This document shows positions 24,001 to 27,000 of a DNA stretch of 64,000 bases, in pieces. The position numbers are program-made. The DNA is taken from NCBI RefSeq assembly GCF_053078305.1, contig NZ_CP166879.1; one strand, written 5' to 3'. Within the stretch, counting starts at the first letter, position 1. Each line of letters opens with the position of its first letter.

Positions 24001-27000
24001 TTTCATGTGGAACGGGTATGCGTTTTATTTGTGATAACAGTTATTTTCTGGAGGGAGTGAAGGAGTATATTAATCCCGGTAAATTCATTATCAGCGGCAT
24101 GCAGACAGATAATGTGGTGATAATATCTTCTTCCCGGATATCTGAAATTGTCGGCTTTCTGTATAAGAATAATATAAGTGATACGAACACCCTTTATTTT
24201 TCTTCTCCGGAAGCGCTCCGTTTTCTCTGGGGAGTGGTTGACAGTCCGGTTTATGATATCAGACATCTTACTGAGCGATGTTCAGTAAACGATATCAGTC
24301 ATCTGTACCGCGCATTCATGTCGGTGGAGAAGCTGACCCTGTCAGGCCGGCAGGTAAATGTACTGATGATGCTGCTTTATGGCAGTAACGGAACAGAGGG
24401 GGCACGATATCTTGGCATGTCAGAGAAAACATTCTCCACTCATAAGCAGAATCTGATAAAGAGGTTACGGGTACATAATGAAGTTGAGTTGTTGTACAAG
24501 GGGATGCTTCTGGTCAGAAAAGGGAGGTTGTGAAGCAGGACAGCTTATTTCCGGTAATGTTAAACGCAGCCTCTGATTCGTTAATTTCATAATCATAAGG
24601 AGTTTTTATGCGTCTGTTGATTGCTTTTCTTCTTCCCTGGCTGACTTTTTTCACCATTGGCCGGCCTCTGACGGGGATTTTTTGTCTGGTGTTACAGATA
24701 ACGCTGCTGGGCTGGATACCGGCAACAATATGGGCTGTGTATGCGCTTTCGCAGTATAAGACGGAACAGAAAATCCGCGAAGCCACGGGGAAATGATGAC
24801 TGCAGAAGAGTTGGTTGTCATACCGGTGTATATGATGCGGGATAAAGGCCCGGAGATTCCTGGAAATAAAATGTTCCGGGGAATATAAAACAGGGAAAAA
24901 CCGGATGTGATGGACGCTTCTGGCGAGGCGGTTTCATGAATTGTCCGTAATCAGGATATGTTGCCCGGTTACGCCGCGAATCTTGTGGCAGCAGTGGTTA
25001 TTATTATCGGGGGTATCGCTGCACGGATGATTTCTGGTGTGCTGAATAATCTGATGCTGGGCAGGAATATTGATGCCACAGTGGCGCTGTTCCTTTCCGC
25101 GCTGATACGTCATGCCATTATAGCCTTTACGCTGATTGCTGCCCTGGGACGTGTGGGGGTTCAGACAGCTTCCGTAATTGCAGTCCTGGGGGCTGCAGGT
25201 CTTGCTGTTGGACTTGCCCTGCAGGGGTCATTGTCAAACCTTGCAGCTGGTATTCTTCTCGTGATGTTCCGTCCTTTCAGGGCTGGTGAATATGCTGACC
25301 TGGGTGGTGTTGCCGGGACTGTGCAGAATGTACATATATTCTCAACCACGATGCGTACACTGGATGGTAAAATTGTTGTCATTCCGAACGGGAAGATTAT
25401 TGCCGGAGAGATTGTTAATTTCTCCAGGGAGCCTGAACGACGAAATGAGTTTATCATCAGTGTTTCATATGATGCAGATATTGACTGTGTGAAACAAGTC
25501 CTGACAGATATTGTGATGTCAGAAGAGAGGGTTCTGAAGAACAGGGAAATCACTGTTCGCCTGAATGAGCCTGGGGAGTCATCCATGAATTTTGTAGTAC
25601 GGGTATGGAGCAGGCGTGATGACCTTCAGTCTGTATACTGGGATGTACTGGAGAGAATTAAGCGGGAGTTTGATTCAGAAGGGATAAGTTTTCCATATCC
25701 ACAAATGGATATCCATCTTGTTCGCTCCGGGAAGCAGGCAGAGTCGGTAACCCATAACAGTCGCTCAGTCAGTTCCAGACAGTAAAATGAAAAGCGCATT
25801 TTATTTGTGAAAGATGAACAGCCTGAATCTGTCAGGCTGTTTTCATTGTGTTTTTATGGTCATTTTTGGTATATGTACTGTATATAATGTCATCTGTACA
25901 AGGATATAAAATGCCAAAGAAAATAATGACAGGGATTGATGTTTTTGACGCTGCCATGGAGCGTATTGAATGGGTGTTTGATACGTTTTCATCAGTTTGT
26001 CTTTCTTTTTCCGGCGGAAAAGACTCCACTGTCCTGTTTCACCTGATGGCGAATATTGCCCGCCGAAAAAAACGCCGTTTTTCTGTACTGTTTGTTGACT
26101 GGGAGGCTCAGTATCAGTGTACCATTGAGCATGTCACCAGGTTGAGGGAAATGTACGATGATATCACAGATACTTTTTTCTGGGTGGCGCTGCCTCTGAC
26201 GACCGTTAATGGAGTGTCTCAGGTACAGCCTGAGTGGGTATGTTGGGAGGACGGGGCTGAATGGGTTCGCCAGCCACCAGAAGATGCCATAACCAGAGCG
26301 TCTTTTTTTCCTTTTTATCAGAATGCGATGACATTTGAAGAGTTTATTCCGGCATTTAATCATTGGTTTGCCCGGGAAAAAGGGATGGTTGCTGCGATTC
26401 TTACTGGTGTTCGCGCTGATGAGTCACTGAATCGTTTTATGGGACTGGTATCCGGACGTAAGCTCCGTTATGCGGAGGATAAACCCTGGACCACGGCATC
26501 GGCTGAGGGATTTTACTACACCATGTATCCTTTGTACGACTGGAAAACAAGAGATGTATGGATTTACCATGCGAGAACACGTGCTGCCTATAACTCTCTT
26601 TATGACCTGATGTACAGGGCTGGAGTTCCTCTTCGCAATATGCGGGTGTGTGAGCCTTTTGGACCGGAGCAACGTAAGGGGTTGTGGCTTTATCATGTAC
26701 TGGAGCCGGATACATGGGGCAGAATGTGTGCTCGCGTATCAGGTGCTGTAGGGGGAGCGCTCTATGCAAATGAAAGTGGTGCTTATTTTGCTTTGAGGAA
26801 ACAGATAACAAAACCAGTTCACCATACATGGCAGAGTTATGCAATGTTTCTGCTGGAGTCAATGCCTGAGAAAACGGCGGAGCATTACAAGAATAAGATT
26901 GCTGTTTATCTTCGGTGGTGGCAGTCTCATGGATGGCCGGATGGCATCCCTGATGAGCAGGATAATGACCAGGGATGTAAAGATATTCCCTCCTGGCGTC

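Follow-up and report, generated by a model that had tools for sequence, protein, structure and literature searches.

The locus described here lies in a 64,000-nt stretch of contig NZ_CP166879.1 (RefSeq assembly GCF_053078305.1), referred to below as the window, and all of its features are on the plus strand. It begins with an intact gene for a 62-aa small membrane proteolipid of the Pmp3/YqaE family (24608–24796), which is preceded by a strong AAGGAG Shine-Dalgarno sequence. An unannotated ORF of 31 codons with uncertain coding status (24793–24888) bridges this gene and the mscS sequence. The position of the ancestral mscS start (24892–24894) reads AGG in the window and ATG in full-length alleles, where it is aligned with Met1 of Escherichia coli K-12 MscS. 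It is followed by a residual mscS 5' end (24907–24939), composed of the tandem potential starts GTG-ATG (24907/24910), eight sense codons (DASGEAVS) and a TGA stop codon (24937–24939). Directly 3' of the stop there is an ATT codon (24940–24942), and the remaining mscS ORF of 275 aa occupies positions 24958–25785. A terminator-like hairpin with 11 pairs and a T-rich tail (25816–25842) closes the Pmp3-mscS unit. No sigma-70 promoter was recovered by a consensus scan of the plus strand between positions 23900 and 26000.

Downstream of the hairpin lies an ibrA-like gene (25911–27131) with PAPS_reduct and DUF3440 domains, which RefSeq names phosphoadenosine phosphosulfate reductase in all loci. The initial annotation had placed a Pmp3-like gene and an MscS gene immediately 5' of ibrA, and both were found there, with the domain content of the downstream gene fitting ibrA. 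On the 5' side of the Pmp3-mscS unit there are two LuxR-type regulator genes, two YadA-like adhesin genes and an IS66 element. A literature search combining eibG with mechanosensitive channels yielded no paper on the locus, and the titles and abstracts of the ibrA/ibrB literature contain nothing bearing on it.

The membership of the 62-aa protein in the Pmp3 family is based on its match to Pfam profile PF01679 (E = 5.9e-9; 36.2 bits against a cut-off of 22.9), in which profile positions 3–48 of 49 (46/49) are covered. Among 11 alleles aligned from other genomes, eight encode the identical protein (RefSeq WP_001237806.1). Its identity to K-12 YqaE, however, is 31% over 48 residues. Of the earlier description of the gene as core-genome-like, the family assignment could thus be retained, while the likeness to the core gene could not; judged by these comparisons, it is a distant member of the family and no close copy of the core yqaE. 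The ATG of the 31-codon ORF overlaps the Pmp3 stop codon (ATGATGA), and the ORF ends 3 nt 5' of the ancestral mscS ATG. It is intact in the window and in 11/11 aligned alleles despite approximately nine substitutions, and has been called as a gene in one Logan assembly only.

The island mscS and its relatives

The 275-aa ORF scores above the cut-offs of four MscS Pfam domains (PF00924, 72.9 bits; PF21082, 62.6; PF21088, 31.0; PF05552, 24.5) and can be aligned to the MscS chains in the PDB with E = 3e-126. It is 76% identical to K-12 MscS (YggB) over 274 residues and corresponds to K-12 residues 23–286 followed by a C-terminal extension of 12 residues, so that it retains TM1–TM3, the beta domain and the C-terminal domain. 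TM3 and the pore are nearly identical to those of the K-12 protein, and the pore residues L105, L109 and G113, which form the TM3a seal and hinge, are invariant in the window ORF, K-12 MscS and 14 relatives. Full-length island alleles can be aligned with K-12 MscS from Met1 onwards and retain Trp16, N20 and Q21. The differences from K-12 MscS are the C-terminal extension, the lack of residues 1–22 in the window allele and the distribution of the gene: the locus was found in 41 of 5426 complete E. coli genomes and is chromosomal in each of them. Because of the 76% identity, this sporadic occurrence and the island setting with adhesin genes, IS elements and ibrA, the gene is to be regarded, on comparative grounds, as a member of the MscS family and a paralogue or xenologue of the core mscS (yggB), not its orthologue, despite the name given to it in RefSeq.

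In a protein search of a database of 5.8 billion sequences, the nearest relatives outside the E. coli island alleles were the core MscS proteins of Klebsiella, Citrobacter and Escherichia (75–78% identity). No donor species was found, as the search left a gap between the E. coli island alleles (at least 93%) and the core proteins. The island MscS is a real, previously undiscussed accessory paralogue, the donor of which is absent from that database. All 110 non-island relatives among the matches listed are 284–317 aa long, and Trp16 is kept in 12/12 of the aligned ones. One seemingly independent short form (P0006, 269 aa) turned out to be a contig-edge artefact, the gene beginning at base 2 of its contig.

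The premature stop codon and its distribution

Met1 of the 275-aa ORF is aligned with residue 23 of K-12 MscS, and consequently 22 N-terminal residues are absent, close to the shortening by about 25 residues proposed in the initial annotation. The stop codon noticed there as closing the frame is the TGA at 24937–24939, 18 nt 5' of ATG 24958. What is missing from the ORF is the Enterobacterales-type anchor domain (residues 1–26, with Trp16), which is present in the full-length alleles of the same locus. MscS homology does not end at ATG 24958; it extends further 5' and passes through the in-frame TGA (VMDASGEAVS*IVRNQD in the frame translation), and with the stop masked the upstream frame can be aligned to K-12 MscS residues 6–32. 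The TGA occupies the codon of Trp16, a residue present in 14/14 of the full-length sequences aligned, and a single transition separates TGG from TGA.

Twelve mscS-bearing loci from other genomes were retrieved and aligned, together with three relic loci (L013–L015). Six of the alleles (A12, IBS28, RM10410, SMBL, 2013C-3181 and STEC17-190) have TGG at the position in question together with the ATG aligned with K-12 Met1, and encode proteins of 298 aa starting with MEKLDVMDASGEAVSWIVRNQD. The allele of CFIAFB20190157 (L008) also has TGG and lacks the original ATG; its RefSeq start is the ATG equivalent to 24910, giving a product of 292 aa. The same TGA as in the window is carried by 2015C-3121, S19-141, STEC2018-553, STEC1585 and N51, and these five alleles differ from the window by at most eight substitutions over the 1.2-kb locus. 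In terms of loci, TGG is found in L003, L004, L008–L012 and the relics L013–L015, and TGA in the window, L001, L002 and L005–L007. Since homology crosses the stop, and other genomes have TGG at this codon of the locus together with a full-length gene, the mscS of the window is, as far as the alignments can tell, a derived point nonsense allele that originated by a TGG to TGA change at the Trp16 equivalent.

A 56-nt probe spanning the stop matched 34 complete genomes, 16 of them identically (TGA) and 18 with one mismatch; the one-mismatch variant was confirmed as TGG in all eight of the 18 that were checked. The 16 TGA carriers comprise 15 human isolates and one food isolate, and the TGG carriers include isolates from sheep, goat, yak, cattle, crow and ibis as well as from humans. 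Formally, the short N-terminus is thus shared with other genomes. The 16 genomes provide no natural short form, however, because they carry the same derived allele. The suggestion of a naturally short paralogue had to be given up, as its orthologues at this locus encode full-length proteins (298 aa) and have TGG, and the N-terminal domain with Trp16 was seen in every relative checked.

Translation and channel function of the TGA allele

The ancestral gene encoded a full-length channel of 292–298 aa with the Enterobacterales-type periplasmic anchor domain, and one TGG to TGA change in one island sub-lineage closed the frame after 9–10 codons. Initiation at 24907 or 24910, upstream of which there is an AGGGA motif, gives a peptide of 9–10 residues. 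Translation of the remaining ORF would then depend entirely on inefficient initiation or re-initiation at ATT 24940 or ATG 24958, or on rare read-through of UGA. Of the two downstream starts, ATT has a Shine-Dalgarno-like GAGG motif 7–11 nt on its 5' side, and ATG 24958 is poorly spaced, with a Shine-Dalgarno-like AGGA at a distance of 0–1 nt. ATT is a weak and rare start codon, and re-initiation after an adjacent termination event is plausible through bacterial translational coupling. Products of these starts would lack residues 1–16 (ATT) or 1–22 (ATG). In genomes with the TGA allele, NCBI places the RefSeq start at the ATT after the stop, and the resulting product of 281–282 aa, beginning with MVRNQD, is called a complete mscS.

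The role of the missing part is known from K-12 MscS, in which the N-terminal residues form a periplasmic anchor domain (Reddy et al., 2019; PMC7299334). When residues 2–26 are deleted, the K-12 protein folds and assembles into oligomers, but it displays no mechanically activated currents and gives no protection against downshock, and its yield falls more than 50-fold, to below 0.1 mg/L from 5–8 mg/L for the wild type (PMC7299334). Approximately 70% of the alanine substitutions at residues 2–30 are defective, L24A and L25A severely so (PMC7299334). Among experimental constructs, this deletion, known as 'Cryst', comes closest to the window allele: both lack the anchor and Trp16 and keep TM1–TM3 and the cytoplasmic vestibule. 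The construct differs in being the K-12 protein, in having four to ten more residues removed and in being expressed from a strong plasmid start rather than by re-initiation (PMC7299334). By analogy, the short product of the window allele may insert into the membrane and oligomerise without opening under tension. This analogy draws on a protein with 76% identity and on a slightly larger deletion.

The window allele carries further lesions, namely L25P and L228P, both Leu-to-Pro substitutions at otherwise invariant columns, and a 3-bp slippage deletion in a (TTA)n run (24995–24997) that removes one Ile from TM1. The deletion is found in the window and L002 only and is absent from all other alleles. 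L25P belongs to the whole haplotype, including the TGG allele L008, and did not follow the stop. Within the TGA lineage, some relatives of the window allele have an IS1 insertion or a 10-aa in-frame deletion. For the window against full-length alleles, the ratio pN/pS is approximately 1.0, on 13 substitutions (three synonymous and ten non-synonymous), a number which gives no power against neutrality. Among the full-length island alleles the ratio is fairly high too (0.17–0.82, mostly 0.6–0.8). The TGA lineage is very young, so its persistence and substitution counts say little. The island gene would be dispensable because the core mscS and other mechanosensitive channels remain.

Taken with the origin of the stop, these observations suggest, with a probability of roughly 0.8, that the accessory island MscS paralogue is present in the window as a derived nonsense allele which is functionally null or strongly hypomorphic and in early decay. 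If so, it is a routine knockout by point mutation and an example of the ordinary decay of accessory-island genes, with small biological weight and some weight for annotation. The RefSeq start at the ATT right after the stop would hide a probable pseudogene and distort any census of mechanosensitive channels in STEC genomes. As a natural pair, the TGG and TGA alleles may also serve as a ready-made test of the need for the anchor domain in a second MscS protein.

It is also conceivable, although unlikely, that the short protein made from ATT 24940 or ATG 24958 is a working MscS for which the anchor is not required. Apart from the missing N-terminus, the 275-aa ORF is intact and has the full set of channel domains and pore residues; it is very common and is annotated by NCBI as a complete mscS. 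The GAGG motif is suitably close to ATT 24940, and the TGA, 0–18 nt upstream of the two starts, could permit re-initiation. The stop nevertheless falls inside conserved coding sequence for which full-length alleles exist at the same locus; ATT is weak as a start, and hardly any spacer separates AGGA from ATG 24958. The substitutions at invariant columns and the TM1 deletion speak against a working channel as well, as does the loss of gating on deletion of residues 2–26 in the closest relative studied. Outside Enterobacterales the anchor motif is largely absent (PMC7299334), and TcMscS of Trypanosoma cruzi is a functional miniature channel (PMC12334622), an MscS fold that is mechanosensitive without this anchor. 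Such naturally minimal MscS-like channels, however, evolved short in distant lineages, whereas the shortening of the window ORF is recent and due to a stop in the conserved anchor-coding region.

A further reading, which seems very unlikely, is that re-initiation just after the stop supplies small amounts of the truncated subunit, without the anchor but with TM3 and the vestibule, and that this subunit has been retained and co-assembles with the core MscS into heteroheptamers resistant to opening. The allele would in that case modulate osmotic release in a dominant-negative manner, in an STEC lineage that is mostly human-associated, with 15 human isolates among the 16 TGA carriers.

Among the stop codons of E. 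coli, UGA is the leakiest, and it can be decoded by near-cognate tRNA-Trp with insertion of Trp, which here would restore the exact ancestral residue. Together with the in-frame ATG/GTG and the AGGGA motif upstream of them, and with the 292-aa MscS annotated from the same ATG in a TGG allele, this makes it imaginable that a full-length channel read through from ATG 24910 is the relevant product. That reading is highly improbable: ordinary UGA read-through reaches a few per cent at most, the allele has other probably damaging changes, and no recoding element was found, there being no Rfam match within 24400–26000 and a marginal fold of the spacer (z = -2.2).

Haplotypes of the locus and order of changes

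Comparison of the window with the A12 allele revealed a mosaic. The block 24797–24980, comprising the spacer and the anchor-coding part, has 18 differences in 184 positions, in contrast to 6 in 1011 in the flanks formed by the Pmp3 gene and the rest of mscS (Fisher p = 6e-11), i.e. approximately 10% versus less than 1% divergence between haplotypes. Two haplotypes can be delineated, along with the recombinants L007, L008 and L011/L012. In the relic loci mscS is cut after approximately codon 37, near window position 25000, and joined to a gene of the EEP family, with TGG kept.

The mosaic block, the recombinant alleles and the real cut near 25000 in other genomes lend some substance to the other proposal of the initial annotation, a 5' truncation in which a recombination or insertion joint removed the N-terminal coding part during assembly of the island. 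It is nonetheless extremely improbable. The window is colinear with the full-length alleles from the Pmp3 gene to the end of mscS, spacer included, in the order and spacing of the intact loci; no base of the full-length 5' end lacks a counterpart in the window, the sole gap being the 3-bp deletion downstream in TM1. Homology continues 5' of the stop, which a single nucleotide explains. No second copy of the mscS 5' region was found inside the window, and the mscS/EEP-type joint of the relic loci is absent from it. On this evidence the mosaic block is not what causes the truncation of mscS. A sequencing or assembly artefact can be practically dismissed, as the same TGA occurs in 16 independent complete genomes and the exact ORF in hundreds of assemblies, one of which (GCA_000736735.1) has a 1.76-Mb contig identical to the window over 6.8 kb; 433 index blocks of public assemblies list the exact 275-aa product.

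With the nonsense change retained as the preferred explanation, its place among the other changes can be considered. The haplotype of the window is marked by the change of the original ATG to AGG and by L25P, both of which occur with TGG as well. Loss of the original ATG (24892) was considered as the inactivating lesion and rejected, since AGG is also found together with TGG in L008 and L013–L015 and L008 is read from the equivalent of 24910. The TGA arose on a haplotype that had already lost the original ATG, as the distribution of the two changes indicates. The idea that ATG 24958 was created as a start after the stop, suggested by ATA at this position in some full-length alleles, was likewise abandoned: the ATG is also present as an internal Met codon in the TGG alleles L008, L011 and L012.

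Sequence variation at the 5' end of the island mscS

The accessory, island-borne mscS paralogue (24958-25785, + strand) follows the Pmp3 gene (24608-24796, + strand). Haplotypes of the island differ by approximately 10% within a sharply delimited block at 24797-24980 and by less than 1% in its flanks, and several alleles are recombinant. In addition, a cluster of four SNPs (24811-24825) differs even between otherwise near-identical alleles carrying the premature TGA stop (24937-24939). Both an imported tract and a local hotspot are possible sources of this divergence. Just downstream of the block, within the sequence for TM1, the length of a (TTA)n run (24985-24997) differs by one repeat among the alleles. 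One Ile codon is absent from the run in the window and in the E. coli genome S19-141, which also carries a TGA allele, and is present in nearly identical sister alleles, a difference that suggests slippage within this short trinucleotide run.

An unannotated ORF of 31 codons (24793-24888) overlaps the stop codon of the Pmp3 gene (ATGATGA) and ends 3 nt upstream of the ancestral mscS start. It is uninterrupted in the window and in all 11 aligned alleles despite approximately nine substitutions, mostly nonsynonymous. A role as a coupling ORF is possible, as is that of a mere spacer.

Annotation and remnants of mscS in other genomes

In RefSeq, the TGA alleles are labelled as complete mscS genes with no pseudogene label, their start being placed at the ATT directly downstream of the stop codon (position 3542 in loci L001 and L002 of two other E. 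coli genomes, corresponding to 24940 in the window). Several further E. coli genomes retain no more of the island mscS than its first approximately 37 codons, together with the spacer. These unannotated remnants (L013 and L014, both 2501-2720; L015, 2897-3165) are joined to unrelated sequence, which runs into a gene of the endonuclease/exonuclease/phosphatase family.

Other genes of the island

The ibrA-like copy downstream of mscS (25911-27131) is unbroken, whereas the first copy (989-2214) is split into two overlapping ORFs, of which 989-1417 contains the N-terminal part of PAPS_reduct and 1414-2214 the remainder of this domain together with DUF3440; the first copy looks like a frameshifted pseudogene. 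No obvious ibrB-like partner of the second copy was seen. The next gene (27320-29107, 595 aa) encodes a fusion of a NERD nuclease domain and a UvrD-type helicase, named '3'-5' exonuclease' in RefSeq, and together with the second ibrA-like gene it may constitute a defence-type module.

The region 6976-16832 comprises a type I secretion set (6976-11703; outer-membrane factor, ABC transporter and HlyD-like protein) followed by an ORF of 1614 codons (11988-16832). In the same part of the island, related genomes have genes annotated as 'GA-like domain-containing protein', 'calcium-binding protein' or 'beta strand repeat-containing protein'.
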